A stretch of DNA of 64,000 nt from positions 1 through 64,000 of the IMG/VR virus record IMGVR_UViG_3300037107_000081. One strand, 5' to 3'. This document shows, one piece after another, positions 3,441 to 60,952 of this stretch (its first letter is position 1; the number at the start of each line of letters is the position of its first letter). This DNA is from a virus. A program made the translations under genes and the position numbers. The notes under the pieces are model-generated. The model was not told the DNA's origin. It saw only the letters and a list, made by a program, of their open reading frames with translations, and did not search any database.

Positions 3441-4307
3441 ATGCAAATTAAAATAAAGATCTTCTCATTAAGGGAAGATGCTGAGTCTTATTTAAATAGT
3501 CTAAATCATTGTAAAGGGCAAATTAAATTATCAGTAAGCAAGGCCAAGACATTTGATGATTGTGCGGCTAAATATAAGTTTTGTTATATAGATAAGTTGC
3601 CAAGGATTGATAGGGATTTTCATATATTCGGGAAGTATCTACATTTGGTTCTTGAGACTTTTCATCGTTATTTATTAGAAAATCCAGGAAGCGAATGGCG
3701 AGCTAAAATTGAGGAAGCTTGGACTTTTGCTTATAATGAGTACAGCGAGTTGATGACTGGCTTTCAATATAAGGAGGCCAAGGAAATAATCGATGAGTAT
3801 AAGGCAATTATTGTAAAAGATGGATTGCCTAATATAATTGAGGTTGAAGCGCCATTCTATATAGTAATTAATGACAAAGTATTATTGAATGGATTTATTG
3901 ATCGGATCCAAAGAGATCCTGATGGAATGATTCACGTAATAGATTATAAGACAACAAAAGATCCAAAATATCTTAAAGACTTTTTCCAGCTGATAACATA
4001 TTGCTATGCTTTATGTTTGGAAGATGAAAGCATTGAAAGAATCAGAGGATCATTTGTTTTGCTCAGACATAACTTTGATTATATTACACATGAATTTACT
4101 AGAGAAGAGGTAATAAAAGTAGCCGAGAAGTTCCTGCGGTATGCTTTTAATATCGAAGAAGAGAAATTGTGGAGACCTAATCCTCAGTTTCTTTGTAAAT
4201 ACTGTGATTATTTGGATCATTGTAAAGCTGGAAAAGATTATTTGACTGCTAAAGGTCTTCTTAAGAAAGTAAAGAGCAAACCTGTTGTAGGTATAAGGAA
4301 ATGGTAA
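3441..4307 (+). CDS. PD-(D/E)XK nuclease, Cas4/RecB-AddB-like, with probable Fe-S cysteines
   Basis: LSVSK...C, FGKYLH, EVE, GFIDRI, VIDYKT, QL..Y, and C-terminal CKYC...C. Confidence 0.88.
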   Translation: MQIKIKIFSLREDAESYLNSLNHCKGQIKLSVSKAKTFDDCAAKYKFCYIDKLPRIDRDFHIFGKYLHLVLETFHRYLLENPGSEWRAKIEEAWTFAYNEYSELMTGFQYKEAKEIIDEYKAIIVKDGLPNIIEVEAPFYIVINDKVLLNGFIDRIQRDPDGMIHVIDYKTTKDPKYLKDFFQLITYCYALCLEDESIERIRGSFVLLRHNFDYITHEFTREEVIKVAEKFLRYAFNIEEEKLWRPNPQFLCKYCDYLDHCKAGKDYLTAKGLLKKVKSKPVVGIRKW

Positions 4308-44753: not shown

Positions 44754-44912
44754 ATGTTAATCAAAACTGGTGATGCAGAAATTATTGGTGTCATTGATTC
44801 GAAGTCGGAAGATATCGAAAGCAAGAATAGCGAAGTTGTAGCGTCAACACTCTTAGATATGGCCAAGAAACGTATTTCTGAATCGGATCAAGATAAAGGC
44901 TTGGAGAACTAA
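44754..44912 (+). CDS. 52-aa protein missed by the ORF track
   Basis: MLIKTGDAEIIGVIDS...; TAATG coupling to the protease; N-terminus mirrors the protease's MLIKLG. Confidence 0.6.
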   Translation: MLIKTGDAEIIGVIDSKSEDIESKNSEVVASTLLDMAKKRISESDQDKGLEN

Positions 44913-47900
44913 TGTTGATAAAACTCGGCGAGTCTGTTTGTATTAGACCTGAAGATATACGACCAGTTGAAAAATTGGTTAGTGATTCTGATTTAGATAT
45001 TGAAAACAGAATGTATAGATTTGCTCAGGAACTTAAAGTTATTGCTCCTAAAGCAAAAGACTTTCTATATTTTACTGCCGTTATGATGCATGCTGCTGAG
45101 GCTGCCTGTGTTAATGATGATGGATCTCCAAAGAAAACAGCATCGGGTGAGGTTGTTTCTGCTACATGGGAAAAGGTTGGAGAGGGCGTCAAGTGGGTTT
45201 GTAATGATCCAAATATCAAATGTTACCGTAACAATAATAGAGATATTTTTCCAGAATATGAATTAAAGTTAGCGTATAAGAAATGGATAGGTCGTCCGTT
45301 ATGCCTCGATCATCAATCACAGTCGGTTGATAAGATTCGAGGCGTTATTGTTGATACTGTATATGATGATCGTAGAAAGAGGTTAATTGCTCTCTGTGCC
45401 CTTGATTCAAAAAATTATAGTGATTTAGCCGATAAGGTTACTAGTGGTGTTGCTAATAACGTATCGATGGGAACCGGGGTTGGCAGGGCTGTGTGTTCAG
45501 AATGCCAACGAGCCGCTAGAACCGAAAAAGACTTTTGCCAGCACATGAAGAATAAGAGTTGTTATGGCGAAATTAACTTGGAACTGTCTCCGTTAGAACT
45601 TTCTTTAGTAGTTGCCGGAGCCGATCCAAAAGCCAAAGTTAAGCATATTATTGCCAGTGATATTGCTAAAGCTGCGGAATTACTTTCTGATTATTTGCAT
45701 GTTAAAGAAGCGGTATCTAGGCAAGATCTAACATCTATACAGGAAGACCTAAAGAGCCTAATGGGTAAGATTGAAGCTATGGCTCATGATAGCGATAAGA
45801 AAGACGAGAGTGATGCGGTTGGTCCGACTCGCTCTAGATGGTCGATGGATGAAGTCAGTAATGAACCATCGACTCAGTTTAATGTTCCTGAGGCATTCCC
45901 AACTTACGCCTCAGAGCTACAAATGGCAATTTTGGGAGCTCAAACAAAACTGGCAAGCTTGCAGGACAATATACTTAGACTATCTAATAATAGTAACGAG
46001 GAATCAATCATGACTACAAAAGAAGCATATTTTCAAGGTACAGAGGAACCAAAACCAGGACAGAAGCAATACGCTGTGGATCCGTTGAATGAGAAAGCCA
46101 GACTATTGGACAAGAATCTACATGGCCCAGCTCCATTTCCAAACACTGGATCTGTAGATGGTATGTATCCTGGTGATGATAAAACCAAGAAAGATTTGCA
46201 GCGCCTAGCGGATGAGCATGAGCGTGCAATGTTCCGTGAAGCTGCTTTGAAGAAGGCCAAGGAACAATTGAAGCAAGGATATTTCCAGGGAACGGAAGAG
46301 CCAACTCCTGGTAAGCCACAATATACAAAAGATCCGCTTAATGAGAAGGATCGTTTATTGGATAAGACCATGGTTGGCGAAAAACCGTTCCCAGGAGTAG
46401 GCAAGGTTGATGGTCTTTATGGTGACGATCTTGCTGAAAAAGAAAAGCTTTCACGAGCATCTTTGAAGGCTAGATTTGAGAAGGTTGCTCTTCCAGATGG
46501 TCGTATTAATAAAGGCGCTTCTAATTGGGTTGTTCTAGCTAATGGAAAACCAATTCTTCAAGCTTCTGTTGCTCAGATCACTCGTGGTAATGAAGAGCAT
46601 TTGTATGATGCGATTGCTACCGAGCGTTTTGGTAGGTCACTATTAAATCGTATTCAGACTGAAGGTTTTGAAGCTACTGCTAATGATTTACTCAAGACTG
46701 CACAAGCTCCAGCCGCTCCTCCTCCAGCCCCAGAAGCTGCGCCAGCCGGTGATATGCCCCCACTTGAGCCACCAAAGGATGTTGCTAGTGAGGGTGGAGA
46801 ACCAGGTGAAATTGTAGATGATATTCAGTCGCTTGTTGATGAAATGGAAGGCAAGATTAGTGATCTTAAGGATAAGGTTAGCGGACCTGTTTCTGAGGAC
46901 GCTGAAGGTCTTGGTGATGTTCCTCCGGCAGGTGATGAGGAATTCGCGGTTCCAGCTGGTGGTGCTCCTGCTCCTAAGAGCGCATCACAGCTTCAATCAA
47001 TGCGTAAACGTGTAAATGTGATGTTGCAGGATGGTATTGATGAGACAATTACTTCTTTATCTAAGCATGTAAATGAACTAAAGACTGCGCAAAAAGTTTA
47101 TAAAGAATCATATGCATCAATGACTGAAGAGCAACGTGATTATATTAACGATCTAACAATTTCGGCCGTGAAAGATGCTAAGGCTCAACTTAATGATACC
47201 AATAGGTTGATGGAAGCTGTTGTTAAGTATGCTACAGGAACAGCTGGTGTTGAAAAGCGCGCACATGAAGAGGGTCTCAATACCGATGAACTTCTTGATG
47301 AAATTGAAGGTGGAAAGGGTGGTGATGACACTTATCTAGACAATGCTGCATTTGAAGATGAGTCACCAGAAGCCACACCAGAAACCGGAAAAATGAAAGA
47401 TTTCTTGTCTGAACTTGGAATTGATTCTGAGAAGGATAATGATGCTGATATGGATGGAACATTAGCTAATGGTACCCCTATTAGTATTAACGATAAGGGA
47501 GAGGCATTACTTGGAAAGAGTACAGGAGGAGCAAAATTGGAATTATCAACTAAACAAGCGCGTGCTGAGGTACGTGTGAAGCTTGCCGAAAAGGGCTTGC
47601 TTGGGTTCAACGAATTGTCTAATGATGCTCATCCAGGTGGCAGTGTAGATGCTGTTTCTGCCGGTAATTTGGATGTAAAACCAAGTGTTCCGGGGTCTGC
47701 ATTCCATGTGGCCAAGGATATTAAAGACGCAATGACCGAATTGGCAAATATGCCTCCTCGTGTTCGTAAGCAGGCTGAGGTTATTAATGAGCTTGTTTCT
47801 TCGGGTAAGATGAGTGCTGAGTCTGTTGATGGTCTTGTGGCTCATGGTATTGATCCTGATGCAGTCAAGTATTGGAAGGAATTGTATGGTCAGGGTGATT

Positions 47901-48274
47901 CGCAGTCGAAGGAATTCGCAACAGAATTAACCAAGGAACATGCCAACGCCAAGAAAGCTGAGGAAATGGAACAATACAAGGGTAAGCTAAAGAGAGCTTA
48001 TCAGGTTGCACAGCAAATGATTGTTAAGGGAATGATTAGTGAAAACCAATTAGATTCCCAGGTTGAAGATATTATGAATTGGAATGATGCTGGTTTTGAA
48101 AGCATCAAGAATATTCTATCAAGACAAGCTTCAATCAGTAAGCAAGCATCCTTACCGGTTGTTGGTCTTTTGGACTCAGGCTCGGTAATTCTTCCAGCGG
48201 CACAAAGCGCAACACAAGAAAGTATAAATATCAAAGGTTTGTTTGATAATCACTTTGCGTCGAGGAAATTCTAA
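44912..48274 (+). CDS. prohead maturation protease fused to a long scaffold-like region
   Basis: N.NRDIFP..EL, WIGRPLCLDH, GVIVD, VSMGT, CSEC..FCQH, ELSLVVAGADPKA (clan SH phage protease pattern), followed by about 850 aa of coiled-coil/acidic sequence. Confidence 0.82.
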   Translation: MLIKLGESVCIRPEDIRPVEKLVSDSDLDIENRMYRFAQELKVIAPKAKDFLYFTAVMMHAAEAACVNDDGSPKKTASGEVVSATWEKVGEGVKWVCNDPNIKCYRNNNRDIFPEYELKLAYKKWIGRPLCLDHQSQSVDKIRGVIVDTVYDDRRKRLIALCALDSKNYSDLADKVTSGVANNVSMGTGVGRAVCSECQRAARTEKDFCQHMKNKSCYGEINLELSPLELSLVVAGADPKAKVKHIIASDIAKAAELLSDYLHVKEAVSRQDLTSIQEDLKSLMGKIEAMAHDSDKKDESDAVGPTRSRWSMDEVSNEPSTQFNVPEAFPTYASELQMAILGAQTKLASLQDNILRLSNNSNEESIMTTKEAYFQGTEEPKPGQKQYAVDPLNEKARLLDKNLHGPAPFPNTGSVDGMYPGDDKTKKDLQRLADEHERAMFREAALKKAKEQLKQGYFQGTEEPTPGKPQYTKDPLNEKDRLLDKTMVGEKPFPGVGKVDGLYGDDLAEKEKLSRASLKARFEKVALPDGRINKGASNWVVLANGKPILQASVAQITRGNEEHLYDAIATERFGRSLLNRIQTEGFEATANDLLKTAQAPAAPPPAPEAAPAGDMPPLEPPKDVASEGGEPGEIVDDIQSLVDEMEGKISDLKDKVSGPVSEDAEGLGDVPPAGDEEFAVPAGGAPAPKSASQLQSMRKRVNVMLQDGIDETITSLSKHVNELKTAQKVYKESYASMTEEQRDYINDLTISAVKDAKAQLNDTNRLMEAVVKYATGTAGVEKRAHEEGLNTDELLDEIEGGKGGDDTYLDNAAFEDESPEATPETGKMKDFLSELGIDSEKDNDADMDGTLANGTPISINDKGEALLGKSTGGAKLELSTKQARAEVRVKLAEKGLLGFNELSNDAHPGGSVDAVSAGNLDVKPSVPGSAFHVAKDIKDAMTELANMPPRVRKQAEVINELVSSGKMSAESVDGLVAHGIDPDAVKYWKELYGQGDSQSKEFATELTKEHANAKKAEEMEQYKGKLKRAYQVAQQMIVKGMISENQLDSQVEDIMNWNDAGFESIKNILSRQASISKQASLPVVGLLDSGSVILPAAQSATQESINIKGLFDNHFASRKF
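46014..46429 (+). repeat. internal ~55-aa duplication in the protease/scaffold
   Basis: KEAYFQGTEEPKPGQKQYAVDPLNEKARLLDK..PFPNTGSVDGMY versus KQGYFQGTEEPTPGKPQYTKDPLNEKDRLLDK..PFPGVGKVDGLY. Confidence 0.9.
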
Positions 48275-48328: not shown

Positions 48329-49252
48329 ATGTCTACTAATAAATATGATATTGCTTCAGCTATGAATGGGATAATAAGCGACCCAGTTAATCAATCAATT
48401 TTCTCAAGGCCACAACCCCTTACCAAGACAGCTGCAAAGAAAGATGATACCGCTGATAAGGCTAAGGCTGAAAAAGAAAAAGCTAAGGAAAAGGCTGCTA
48501 AAGAGAAGGAAAAGGAAAGGGCTGCTAAGGAAAAAGCCAAAGAACAGGCTGCTAAAGCTAAGGCCAAGAAAAAGGCTTCAACTAAATATGAAGCTTGCGT
48601 TATTGGTTTGTGCAAAATTTCTGAAATGCTAGATGAGGCTGGTTTGTCAAAGTCGTCTTCATATGCATTGCTAGCACTTAACGATTTGATTAGTACTGCC
48701 GCAAAGAAGAAGGAAGAAAAAGAGGAAAAGGCTAAGGGAAAGAAAGATGAAAAGGGCAAGGGCAAGAAAGAAGAGCCCAAGGACGAAAAAGCTAAGGGCA
48801 AGAAAGCACCTCCGTTTATGAAGAAGGATGAAAAAGGCGACAAGGATAAGAAGGTAAAGAAGGCAGATTATGGTGTTAAGCATGAGCTAACTCCAGGTTA
48901 TGTAAATCCTTGGAATGACAAATCAACCAAGTCTTTTCCTGGCGATCCTATGAATTTTTCGCTTGCTCCTGAAAAACCAGCTGCGGCTCTAAAATCAATT
49001 ACACACACTGATTCTGCATTTCGTCCAGGTGACCCGCTAAATCAAAATGGTGATTATGTTGCTAGCGCAGATGATTGTGAATACGCTGACGATGAAGAAG
49101 TAAGTAATTGTGATGATTTTGATACTTTGTCAAATCAGATCGATCCTGATTCTTTGTGGGAAACCGAAGTTACAGCTGATGAAGAGAAGACTTCTTTGCA
49201 GAAACTTGCTGAGGAATTGGAGGCAACCAAGAGTTTTTTAGCCGCAAAGTAA
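48329..49252 (+). CDS. Lys/Glu/Ala-rich putative head protein (frame-0 product)
   Basis: GAGG RBS; LTKTAA, KEKAKEK repeats, hairpin tag; ends 12 nt after the slippery heptamer. Confidence 0.75.
   Translation: MSTNKYDIASAMNGIISDPVNQSIFSRPQPLTKTAAKKDDTADKAKAEKEKAKEKAAKEKEKERAAKEKAKEQAAKAKAKKKASTKYEACVIGLCKISEMLDEAGLSKSSSYALLALNDLISTAAKKKEEKEEKAKGKKDEKGKGKKEEPKDEKAKGKKAPPFMKKDEKGDKDKKVKKADYGVKHELTPGYVNPWNDKSTKSFPGDPMNFSLAPEKPAAALKSITHTDSAFRPGDPLNQNGDYVASADDCEYADDEEVSNCDDFDTLSNQIDPDSLWETEVTADEEKTSLQKLAEELEATKSFLAAK
49219..49240 (+). promoter_or_regulatory. -1 programmed ribosomal frameshift signal (internal SD + U_UUU_UUA)
   Basis: GGAGG at 49219-49223, 10-nt spacer, T TTT TTA at 49234-49240 correctly phased in frame 0. 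Confidence 0.72.
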
Positions 49253-49731
49253 TAGCCGGTAAAAAAGATCCTAAGGCCAAAGTTAGGAATAGACCGGATC
49301 CAATTTTCAGTAGTAAACATTCTAAAGTAAAAGATGATAAAGATCACTTTCCGATTGATACTATTGAATGCGGCAGAAACGCTCTTGCTCAATGTGAAAA
49401 ATATGACTCGGCCCCTACGTGGTGGAAAGGATCCTTAAAAGAACTTCAAAATTCCGTATCAAGGGCTGTACATAATGAGTATCCAAGTATTAAGAGTGAA
49501 AATAAAAAGAAATCTAGTCACGAGGTATTATTAGAGGTTTTAGGTAGTAGTAAAAAAAGACCGGTTCCATTCTGGGATATAGGAAAAATGACAGATCCAA
49601 TGCTTGATGAATGGGAAGCTATTTTACAAGGACAAAAGGAATTCAGAGACAATCCATTATACGATATTTTCTTAAAAGACATTGCTACTGAAAAAAGAAA
49701 TAGACAAATGGATTTAAAGCGAGCAGTATGA
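49234..49731 (+). CDS. -1 frame extension of 48329 (fusion about 467 aa)
   Basis: 165 open codons (FFSRKVIAGKKDPKAKVRNRPDPIF...KDHFPIDTIECGRNALAQ...YPSI...); first in-frame ATG only at 49588; stop overlaps the next ATG (ATGA). Confidence 0.75.
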   Translation, partial: FFSRKVIAGKKDPKAKVRNRPDPIFSSKHSKVKDDKDHFPIDTIECGRNALAQCEKYDSAPTWWKGSLKELQNSVSRAVHNEYPSIKSENKKKSSHEVLLEVLGSSKKRPVPFWDIGKMTDPMLDEWEAILQGQKEFRDNPLYDIFLKDIATEKRNRQMDLKRAV

Positions 49732-49943
49732 AAAATTTTACTACAGATATTGAAAATAATATGGCCTTTTTTATGGGAGGAGATCTTAAGAAATCTCTAA
49801 ACAAAGATGAGGCCATATGCTCGTTGAATAAAGCACGAAATCTTCTTCAGAATGCCGGATTGGAAACTCTTTGTGTTGCCATTGATGCGATTGTTAAAAA
49901 GGCAGAGTTTATTGACGAAAGTAACATCGAGGTAACCATATGA
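49728..49943 (+). CDS. small protein consisting mostly of the hairpin tag
   Basis: AICSLNKARNLLQNAGLETLCVAIDAIVKKAE. Confidence 0.65.
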   Translation: MKNFTTDIENNMAFFMGGDLKKSLNKDEAICSLNKARNLLQNAGLETLCVAIDAIVKKAEFIDESNIEVTI

Positions 49944-50872: not shown

Positions 50873-51568
50873 ATGACATTAAGACTTGTTCAGGTAGGAA
50901 ATGCACTACCAGTATCATACCCAGTTGATCCCTCAGCAGAATTTGAACCCGGTATGATTGCTCAGCTTTATTTGCGTGGTAATAATATTGTTTGTGGTGT
51001 TAGTGATGGAAGAGCACCGTTGGGTATTATAGATGATTTTAAAACAAGAGCTTTTACAGCCCCTTCTATTGATGAAACTGTTATAGCAGCAGCTCCGGCA
51101 ATTGATGATGGTAGTGGTCATCTTATTACTCCAATAGATGTAAATATTAATCTTATAAATCCAAATGTTATTCCGGCTAGTTTTATTACGTCGCCTGTTG
51201 ATGTAGCCCTTAATGCTCGAAATGGTATGATTACTTTTCCAGCAGGAACACCATTGAATTTTGATTTGGATGGTGATGGTATTCCAGATTCAATTAGAAC
51301 AATTTGCAGTTATATTTATCAGGTCCCAAACATTTCTGGTGATGATTCTACTGCAGGAAGTGGACATATTACTGTTTGGTTTATGAGAGGAATATATCAG
51401 TGTGATAGCTACGAGACAAACCAACGTTATCCACTTAATGCTATATTATTTGTATCAGAGAATGGAAAATTAACAACTTCTCAGCCAAATGATGACTATC
51501 CAGGTGTTGCAATGGTAACTGGGCCACCCAGCGCTTCAATGTCCAGTTTAGAATTTGAATGGCTTTAA
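50873..51568 (+). CDS. head decoration-like protein
   Basis: DSTAGSGHITVW..G...LFVSENGKLT pattern shared with 16907 and 59136. Confidence 0.6.
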   Translation: MTLRLVQVGNALPVSYPVDPSAEFEPGMIAQLYLRGNNIVCGVSDGRAPLGIIDDFKTRAFTAPSIDETVIAAAPAIDDGSGHLITPIDVNINLINPNVIPASFITSPVDVALNARNGMITFPAGTPLNFDLDGDGIPDSIRTICSYIYQVPNISGDDSTAGSGHITVWFMRGIYQCDSYETNQRYPLNAILFVSENGKLTTSQPNDDYPGVAMVTGPPSASMSSLEFEWL

Positions 51569-51575
51569 AATTATT

Positions 51576-51953
51576 ATGAAAACTATATATAAAACATGTA
51601 GTGGATGTAGAGAAACAAAAATACCCAATGATTTTTATAAAAACTCAAAACAGTTTCATGTTAGTAAAAATTTAGAAAAGGAGATACTTAAGAGGCTACC
51701 ATATACAGCTGATGAATTAAGGTTGCATATAGAATCATTATGGGAGCCGTGGATGAATTGGGATAATTATGGTAAGTTTGATAAAAATAAAAAGACTTGG
51801 CAAATTGATCATATAATTCCACAAAGCAAGTTGCCATTTGATTTTCTTGATCATAAAAATTTCCTCAAACTATGGGCGCTTGAAAATCTACAACCGCTTG
51901 AAACCATTGCCAATATCAAGAAAGGTAATAAAATAATACCCAAAGCAGCCTAA
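51576..51953 (+). CDS. HNH homing-endonuclease-like protein, probably internally deleted
   Basis: KTCSGC..K...FYK joined directly to LPYTADELRLHIE..WMNWDNYG..WQIDHIIP..W.LENLQPL...NIKKGNK. Confidence 0.75.
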   Translation: MKTIYKTCSGCRETKIPNDFYKNSKQFHVSKNLEKEILKRLPYTADELRLHIESLWEPWMNWDNYGKFDKNKKTWQIDHIIPQSKLPFDFLDHKNFLKLWALENLQPLETIANIKKGNKIIPKAA

Positions 51954-59941: not shown

Positions 59942-60952
59942 ATGTCTTTATTTGATACCCATGGTGGTATGAATGCTTCGTCTGTAAGAGACGCATTGAA
60001 TACGTTAGTTAAATACGCAGCGATCATAGAAGAAGGTCAGCCCTCGAATATGGCGCTATCAGGTCAACCAAGCCTGAATGATGAGAAACGAGATGAGCTT
60101 ATCGCCAGAGCAATTATGACCCAGGAAGGGAAGCTTGCTCTTGCTCAGGCTATGGCAAACCCAATTCGTAGAAACCTTGATTATCAGGGAATTGCACGTC
60201 GTCTGTTGGTCGTAGATCCACTTCCACAAGGAGTAGATCCGAAGTATGAGCGTGATATCGATGTCGCAGCTACCGTTATTTCCAGCAATGGTACCGGTGG
60301 TGAAAGCCGCGTGTTCGGTGATCGTATCGTAATTCCTACCTTCGAACTTTACTCGAACCCAACCGTTCGCATTTCAGAAGTTCGTCGTCGTAGATTCAAC
60401 GTGATTGATCGTGCGGTCCAGAAGGCACGTCAAGAAATAATGGCCCAGGAAGATGCCAACATTTTCGCAGCCATTGATGCAGCTTCAACTGTTGAGAATG
60501 CCGCTCAGGATATTACTGATGGTGGAATGCTTAAGAGAGACTTGGTCGATATTAAGGTCCAGATTGATCGTTGGGACCTGGTAACGACAAAGTATTTCAT
60601 GAATATCAATGAGTTTACTGATATTCTTAACTGGGCATCCGGCGGTGGCCAGGGCGCAGGTGGTGGAGAAATTGATCCAGTTACACAGCGCGAAATTCTC
60701 CAGACCGGTCTCTATGCTCACATTTGGGGCGCGGACATTATGGTGTCAAAGATTGTTCCACCAGGAACCGTTTATGGAGCGGCCGATCCAGAGTTTGTAG
60801 GTGTTTTGCCCATAAGACAAGACATCGAGGTAATTCCGGCCGATGAGCCGAAGCAACTCAAATTGGGTTGGGTTGTGAGTGAAGAAATCGGCATTGGTAT
60901 CGTGAATCCACGAGCCGTTGCTGTATCGCGCAAGTCAACGATTGTTCAATAA
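59942..60952 (+). CDS. major capsid protein (HK97 fold)
   Basis: AGGAG RBS; LAQAMANPIRRNLDYQGIARRLL, FELYSNPTV, AQEDANIF, GHIWG-like AHIWGADI, LGWVVSEEIGIGIVNPRAV; followed by a strong terminator. Confidence 0.9.
   Translation: MSLFDTHGGMNASSVRDALNTLVKYAAIIEEGQPSNMALSGQPSLNDEKRDELIARAIMTQEGKLALAQAMANPIRRNLDYQGIARRLLVVDPLPQGVDPKYERDIDVAATVISSNGTGGESRVFGDRIVIPTFELYSNPTVRISEVRRRRFNVIDRAVQKARQEIMAQEDANIFAAIDAASTVENAAQDITDGGMLKRDLVDIKVQIDRWDLVTTKYFMNINEFTDILNWASGGGQGAGGGEIDPVTQREILQTGLYAHIWGADIMVSKIVPPGTVYGAADPEFVGVLPIRQDIEVIPADEPKQLKLGWVVSEEIGIGIVNPRAVAVSRKSTIVQ

Follow-up and report, generated by a model that had tools for sequence, protein, structure and literature searches.

The question raised by this locus is how a long coding sequence can be expressed when it has no start codon of its own. 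The sequence lies in IMG/VR virus record IMGVR_UViG_3300037107_000081, of which positions 1 to 64,000 were analyzed (the whole 64-kb stretch is called the window below), directly downstream of a gene at 48329-49252 that encodes 307 amino acids (aa). The downstream frame is offset by -1 from that gene and encodes a conserved protein domain. A programmed -1 ribosomal frameshift at the slippery heptamer U_UUU_UUA would join the two parts and give isoforms of 307 and 467 aa from a single gene of the head module. On the strength of sequence comparisons, this reading is given a probability of roughly 0.8.

Anatomy of the frame break

The elements of the break and its surroundings, in order along the window, are as follows.

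48329-49252, + strand: 0-frame gene of 307 aa (short isoform), from reading of the open reading frame (ORF); 3' end AGT TTT TTA GCC GCA AAG TAA TAG
49210-49212, + strand: TGA shutting the -1 frame upstream, read from the sequence
49219-49223, + strand: Shine-Dalgarno (SD)-like GGAGG, a possible stimulator, with a 10-nucleotide (nt) spacer to the heptamer
49234-49240, + strand: slippery heptamer U_UUU_UUA, the proposed -1 site, in X_XXY_YYZ phase with gene 48329
49240-49731, + strand: -1 continuation after the shift, 163 codons plus TGA; 304 + 163 residues make up the predicted 467-aa long isoform
49250-49255, + strand: tandem 0-frame stops TAA TAG, three sense codons past the heptamer
49267-49491, + strand: conserved globular domain in the -1 frame, DPKAKVRN..KVKDDKDHFPI..RNALA..P.WW.GSL..YPSI, with 86 homologues
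49492-49728, + strand: window-specific C-terminal tail of the -1 ORF, about 70 residues, with an internal ATG at 49588
49728-49943, + strand: next gene, 71 aa, with its own ATG; syntenic in all relatives

The -1 frame is open from 49213 up to the TGA at 49729-49731 and overlaps the 0 frame over 40 nt (49213-49252). Because the TGA at 49210 closes it upstream, a shift must take place within this overlap. The earliest ATG, GTG or TTG in the -1 frame is the ATG at 49588, and the conserved domain holds no start codon. At its far end the frame meets the next gene, its stop and the ATG at 49728 overlapping as ATGA. Much of this had been described in the original prediction, and its statements on the heptamer phase, the GGAGG spacing, the TGA at 49210, the start at 49588 and the ATGA overlap all hold on re-reading; its isoform sizes of 307 and about 467 aa likewise agree with the sum above.

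In the proposed mechanism most ribosomes would terminate at the TAA at 49250 and release the 307-aa short form, a charged, helical and disordered protein. A fraction would slip by -1 on U_UUU_UUA (49234-49240) in a tandem slippage, with the P-site tRNA-Phe moving from UUU to UUU and the A-site tRNA-Leu from UUA to UUU. The slipped ribosomes would then stay in the -1 frame as far as 49731, producing a rarer 467-aa form that carries a DUF6582-like domain and a lineage-specific tail. The ratio of plain to domain-bearing protein would be set by the efficiency of slippage.

The window was screened with 18 canonical heptamers that had to be phased in an open frame of at least 100 codons and lead into a -1 extension of at least 60 codons. 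Two sites pass, the one at 49234 and T_TTA_AAG at 49713. The latter (49713-49719) lies three codons before the stop of the -1 ORF and leads into the frame of the 71-aa gene; that gene has its own ATG and is separate in all relatives, and the site is probably coincidental. The string TTTTTTA is present in 10 copies on the + (coding) strand of the window. As a side observation, its distribution is strongly strand-biased, the - strand having 35 copies, a bias that fits A-rich coding strands and possibly an avoidance of slippery T runs in mRNA.

Conservation of the break and selection on the -1 frame

Relatives were collected by scanning IMG/VR and the JGI/ENA metagenomes with the product of the -1 frame, which gave 97 loci in five classes. 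Duplicate loci were merged (L001=L018, L002=L022, L005=L006, L003=L004=L019, L007=L012=L024, L010=L088). A split at the same site is found in seven distinct sequences, namely the window itself (WIN), L001, L002, L005, L020, L021 and L023, with domain identities of 61-77%. All seven have a full-length upstream ORF opening MSKFDIA..MNGI, then NNT TTT TTA, a 0-frame stop one to three codons on and a -1 frame that runs into the domain, where the conserved DPKAKVRN motif is preceded by no start codon in any of them. The codon leading into TTT TTA is AGT, GAT or GGT; the residue varies (Ser, Asp or Gly) while the third-base T is constant. In L001, L005, L020 and L023 a -1 frame stop falls zero to one codon ahead of the T run, which leaves the heptamer as the sole place for a frame change. 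Slippage at A_AAG (49247-49249) was considered as a common site and rejected, as it is lacking in L002, L005, L020, L021 and L023. The closest homologues keep the break at the same heptamer, an outcome the original prediction had named as a check. Its core reading, -1 slippage that joins a start-less ORF to the upstream gene, gains from this conservation; two of its embellishments, the SD stimulator and the head-protein label, lack support in the form in which they were put, as described in later sections.

Homologues of the N-terminal part extend further. A protein search with it found about 20 more distinct short forms of 244-367 aa, whose C-termini follow the pattern ...SLQKLAEEL..[S/G/D/N]FL[A/T/E/G]. 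Scans of viral contigs with P0002 (the 307-aa product) and P0106 returned low-complexity patterns and no further loci, and a viral-contig scan with alignment A4 gave no match. A separate observation concerns the upstream ORF of L020 (P0089), which sits on a 463-kb contig and bears the NCBI name of a hypothetical protein from 'Candidatus Pacearchaeota archaeon'; the contig resembles a giant phage binned into an archaeal metagenome-assembled genome.

A break that adjoins a homopolymer and would be mended by a seventh T invites a simple explanation, that of a recent inactivating indel or a homopolymer assembly error. The -1 frame would then be a decaying remnant or an artefact, and any shifting an adventitious rescue. 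That the more distant relatives are in frame could also be taken this way. The sequence data make it a very remote prospect. The same break recurs in the seven distinct sequences, which come from different samples. Logan contigs of three runs from different studies of peat and freshwater (X3, X5 and X9) cover 49234-49240 without gaps or other letters; on the T6-or-T7 question raised with the original prediction, independent assemblies thus agree on T6 without indels. Contigs of an RNA run (X8) cover 49396-49836, which stops short of the junction. Where the split forms differ in length from the in-frame relative L003, they do so 3' of the T run and not inside it.

Selection on the -1 frame also speaks against decay. 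The seven split sequences were aligned in that frame, and the columns that combine an invariant residue with a degenerate codon (n=58) were examined. The codon varies in 43 of the 58; a single codon is kept in the other 15, two of which are the TTT TTT of the heptamer. Such turnover of codons under unchanged residues points to purifying selection, and to judge from it the -1 frame is translated and selected as protein, including the stretch that precedes any possible start. The heptamer behaves differently from its surroundings. Conserved Leu columns elsewhere in the alignment use several codons each, and TTA and TTG account for 32% and 24% of Leu codons. TTG, although it would preserve the T6 run, is found in none of eight cassettes (the seven splits plus a further one in L099, described below), and the invariance of TTT TTA contrasts with the synonymous turnover elsewhere in the same sequences.

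In more distant homologues the two parts are fused in frame (L003, L007, L008, L010, P0013, P0103 and P0111), which indicates that they belong to one polypeptide and does not count against the shift. These fusions bear on another explanation, in which the domain is the product of a separate gene, translated alone through reinitiation past the 0-frame stop or from a non-canonical start. In many phages the domain is indeed free-standing with its own ATG (L009, L013 and L014), and public gene callers begin it at an internal GTG (P0003-P0012). The window has GTT in place of that GTG, and L001 has GTA; starting there would remove the conserved DPKAK; the domain of the window contains no ATG, GTG or TTG, and no near-cognate start is conserved. 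Together with the in-frame fusions and the loss of the heptamer where the domain is absent (L100, below), these points make two separate genes highly improbable. In a variant of the two-gene explanation, the 47-aa ORF that begins at ATG 49588 might alone be real in the -1 frame. This ATG is preceded by AGGA, and the tail may also be made by itself as a 47-aa protein.

The T run itself has different fates among the relatives. Of the in-frame forms, L003 keeps T6A and L007 has T7. In these two independent sequences the -1 frame closes within three to four codons of the T run (L003:3009-3030 and L007:3018-3040). Slippage in L003 or L007 would yield a truncated form without the domain.

In L025 (1960-2000) the split lies at GCT AAA AAA AAA GTC, an A9 run with no T run, and a -1 frame TAA directly precedes the A run; this arrangement is seen on one 6.4-kb contig only. 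The A9 split is a candidate for -1 frameshifting or for transcriptional slippage. A tree of the domain and two downstream genes groups L025 with the in-frame L003 (support 95/94), which marks its split as one of independent origin; for split versus in-frame states, the tree is resolved for two clades only.

L099 has its two parts joined in frame (AGC ATT ATC TTA), with no T run at the junction. Here a cassette of AGT TTT TTA GTG TAA sits after the domain (L099:3161-3448) and leads into a -1 extension of 95 codons, which is start-less and a paralogue of the stand-alone ORF following it (3445-3633). The tail of the window (49492-49728) has no homologue in the related loci, where the ORF ends ...LLESLGK before the 71-aa gene, and it is weakly similar to the L099 extension (pairwise E 2.5e-5) and to the paralogous ORF that follows. 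L100 (2440-2500) is without the domain. Its 3' end reads GGA CTC TTG GCG TCG AAG TAA with no T run, and the syntenic 71-aa gene begins 6 nt past the stop. With no -1 ORF to reach and the T run gone, L100 serves as a natural negative control.

This variety allows a more speculative and rather doubtful reading, that 'NNU UUU UUA + 1-3 codons + stop' is a portable recoding module found at different domain boundaries. The cassette would stand before the DUF6582-like domain in the lineage of the window and after it in L099, with an A9 replacement in L025; in L003 and L007 slippage at this site would instead shorten the product, as in dnaX. If true, such a module would adjust what fraction of a scaffold-like protein bears optional C-terminal modules.

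Ribosome, polymerase and candidate stimulators

Conservation of the site and of the frame beyond it speaks for a change of frame, and the agent of the change has to be considered separately. The main rival to a ribosomal shift is transcriptional slippage, in which the RNA polymerase of the phage or its host adds one U at the T6 run, so that a U7 mRNA is read in frame (...SFF-SRK...). Giant phages often encode their own RNA polymerases, a T or A run is common to all split loci, L007 is in frame with T7, and no ribosomal stimulator is detectable in L099. The A9 run of L025 is of a length known for such slippage, while six residues are short for efficient slippage by bacterial polymerases (PMC5009743). 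In the T6 cassettes themselves the phase N_NT_TTT_TTA is preserved exactly in eight of eight cases, with A as the last base and never TTG. A fixed phase and final A are expected of tRNA re-pairing and not of a stuttering polymerase. Six relatives, moreover, have a stem of 8-9 bp at the canonical spacing of 7 nt. Polymerase slippage is accordingly rated unlikely, and we infer that the shift is ribosomal.

Two elements near the heptamer of the window could stimulate a ribosomal shift. The first is the SD-like GGAGG, and the second lies downstream.

49256-49297, + strand: possible downstream structure, with an outer 5-bp stem CCGGU/ACCGG and an inner 6-bp hairpin UCCUAA/UUAGGA

An SD-like motif stands 6-12 nt upstream of the heptamer in five of the eight cassettes and is absent from L001, L021 and L099. 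It coincides with the Glu codons of the conserved AEEL motif and may for that reason reflect coding constraint. The description of the motif as a dnaX-style SD stimulator was thus too strong. SD sequences are present at 31 of the 57 ORFs of the window against a background of 11%, a level of use from which it follows that an internal SD could act here, though unproven. The downstream stem noted with the original prediction does appear in the minimum-energy fold of the window, and it is no better than chance (z-scores of -1.4 to -1.7, with 13-20 of 200 shuffles as good, which is not significant). Its counterpart in six relatives is an outer stem of 8-9 bp (GGCAGCUGG/CCGGCUGCC) that begins 7 nt past the heptamer and has z-scores of -1.5 to -3.6; its covariation term is about 0, and its arms are Ala, Gly and Pro codons.

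The heptamer U_UUU_UUA is efficient on eukaryotic ribosomes, and the earlier description of it as an efficient slip site is true of them. In E. coli, according to the Atkins review, it is much less shift-prone than A_AAA_AAG (PMC5009743). The efficiency of frameshifting here may be modest.

Several observations weigh against programmed -1 frameshifting by the ribosome. The stem of the window is weak (z -1.4), with an outer stem of 5 bp that begins 15 nt past the heptamer. Three of the eight cassettes lack the SD-like motif, and L099 has neither it nor a downstream stem. The seven T6A sequences are related and do not represent seven independent events. The check on T6 used contigs, in which minor T7 variants or RNA slippage would not show. 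The low shift-proneness of U_UUU_UUA also counts on this side, as a value for E. coli that may not be that of the phage host (PMC5009743).

Protein products, genomic setting and known systems

The 307-aa product is K/E-rich, helical and largely disordered, with a mean predicted local distance difference test (pLDDT) score of 59 in its AlphaFold2 (AF2) model. Helices are predicted at 8-26, 86-141 (a hairpin) and 289-306, along with a long charged disordered region, and the terminal helix at 289-306 contains the slip site. A mean pLDDT of 59 is too low for a fold search. Neither P0001 nor P0002 matched a family in Pfam or PHROGs. The earlier label of 'head protein' has the position of the gene as its sole basis, and the position and composition of the protein fit a scaffold-like or internal head protein.

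The domain in the -1 frame is better defined. AF2 models it as a small alpha/beta unit with a pLDDT of 80 and 51 residues at 90 or above. Many of its homologues stand alone, as proteins of 90-130 aa that begin at an ATG of their own, and in others the domain is joined to an unrelated N-terminus; no common neighborhood was found among the contexts of the stand-alone genes. Against PF20223 (DUF6582), with a gathering threshold of 27.3 bits, the homologue P0030 scores 26.5 and P0046 15.7, and P0001 has no match; in an Atlas neighbor cluster, PF20223 is found in 17% of the members. By these profile scores the domain appears to be a distant relative of DUF6582. A profile search of the domain against PDB gave no match, a Foldseek search of its model against PDB and BFVD gave none at E <=0.001, and VIA-align (wide) gave a best Z of 3.9 and no fold assignment. 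A literature search found no paper mentioning DUF6582.

The window covers part of the genome of an uncultivated giant phage. The source record is 75 kb long, with a CheckV completeness estimate of 18%, and its genes are all on the + strand. The gene at 48329-49252 lies within the head-morphogenesis module, whose recognizable members are listed here.

35871, + strand: large terminase (TerL), by PHROGs
37825, + strand: portal, by PHROGs
44912-48274, + strand: 1120-aa ORF with a prohead-protease domain; residues 107-249 match phrog_18299 and phrog_4523
59942-60952, + strand: major head protein, phrog_2522, E 1.5e-75

The frameshift gene sits between the protease-bearing ORF and the capsid gene and is not itself the major capsid protein. 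The rest of the 1120-aa ORF, outside residues 107-249, is without a match, and the ORF resembles a protease-containing polyprotein upstream of the frameshift gene. Within the same module, a 132-aa ORF at 51555-51953 has a weak match to endonuclease VII / HNH (phrog_1035, E 3.4e-7). Comparison of the region with 50,697 phage records by blastn and tblastn gave no match.

Extension of a head protein by a -1 shift has precedents, and the locus is less of a departure from the familiar tail-chaperone frameshift than the original prediction had held. In gene 10 of phages T7 and T3 (10A/10B) and in the head protein of Lactobacillus phage A2 (gp5A/gp5B), a -1 shift gives a C-terminally extended minor isoform (PMC5009743; PMC5221750). 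As in those systems, the shift proposed here would take place a few codons short of the 0-frame stop in a head-module gene, and the long form would consist of the short form plus a C-terminal segment in a ratio fixed by translation. Unlike 10A/10B and gp5A/5B, the gene here does not encode the major capsid protein, and its product is charged and mostly disordered. The heptamer also differs, G_GUU_UUC in T7 against U_UUU_UUA here, and what the shift would add is a DUF6582-like domain, known as a free-standing protein in other phages.

The likeness to dnaX (tau/gamma) of E. coli lies in the tandem-slippage heptamer, in the GGAGG 10 nt upstream in the window and in the stem 7 nt downstream in six relatives. 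The dnaX slip site is A_AAA_AAG, read by a single tRNA-Lys, in place of U_UUU_UUA; the shifted product is shorter in dnaX and would be longer here; the SD-like motif here is not conserved, being present in five of the eight cassettes; and the gene families are unrelated. The slip site of HIV-1 gag-pol is identical, U_UUU_UUA, and its downstream stem-loop is spaced much as in the relatives of the window. HIV-1 differs in using eukaryotic ribosomes and in fusing an enzyme, so that the resemblance is confined to slip-site chemistry.

Like the tail chaperones G/GT, the locus would have a conserved -1 shift in a phage morphogenesis gene and so give a minor C-terminally extended protein. The slip site of lambda G/GT is G_GGA_AAG, and P2 E/E' slips at T_TTT_TTG, a T-run heptamer. 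Unlike G/GT, the gene here lies in a head module, between the protease and capsid genes, and not between the tail tube and tape-measure genes. A link of either part to tail chaperone families was looked for in Pfam and PHROGs and none was found; a distant relationship is possible. A literature search on frameshifting in jumbo phages found no paper.

The mechanism proposed is a textbook one, a familiar kind of viral recoding, and the value of the locus lies in the correction of a systematic mis-annotation and in the material it offers on the evolution of frameshift sites. Gene callers miss the frameshift; in public predictions the first protein stops at ...FLA, and an internal GTG is taken arbitrarily as the start of the domain. 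The locus is consequently mis-annotated throughout a clade of uncultivated peat and freshwater giant phages. The locus also provides a first genomic context for a DUF6582-like module, which would be attached optionally, and in sub-stoichiometric amounts, to the C-terminus of a head-module protein. The natural series of states, with the two parts in frame, split at U6A, split at A9, with the cassette moved, or with domain and heptamer lost, makes these phages well suited to comparative work on the origin, movement and loss of frameshift sites.

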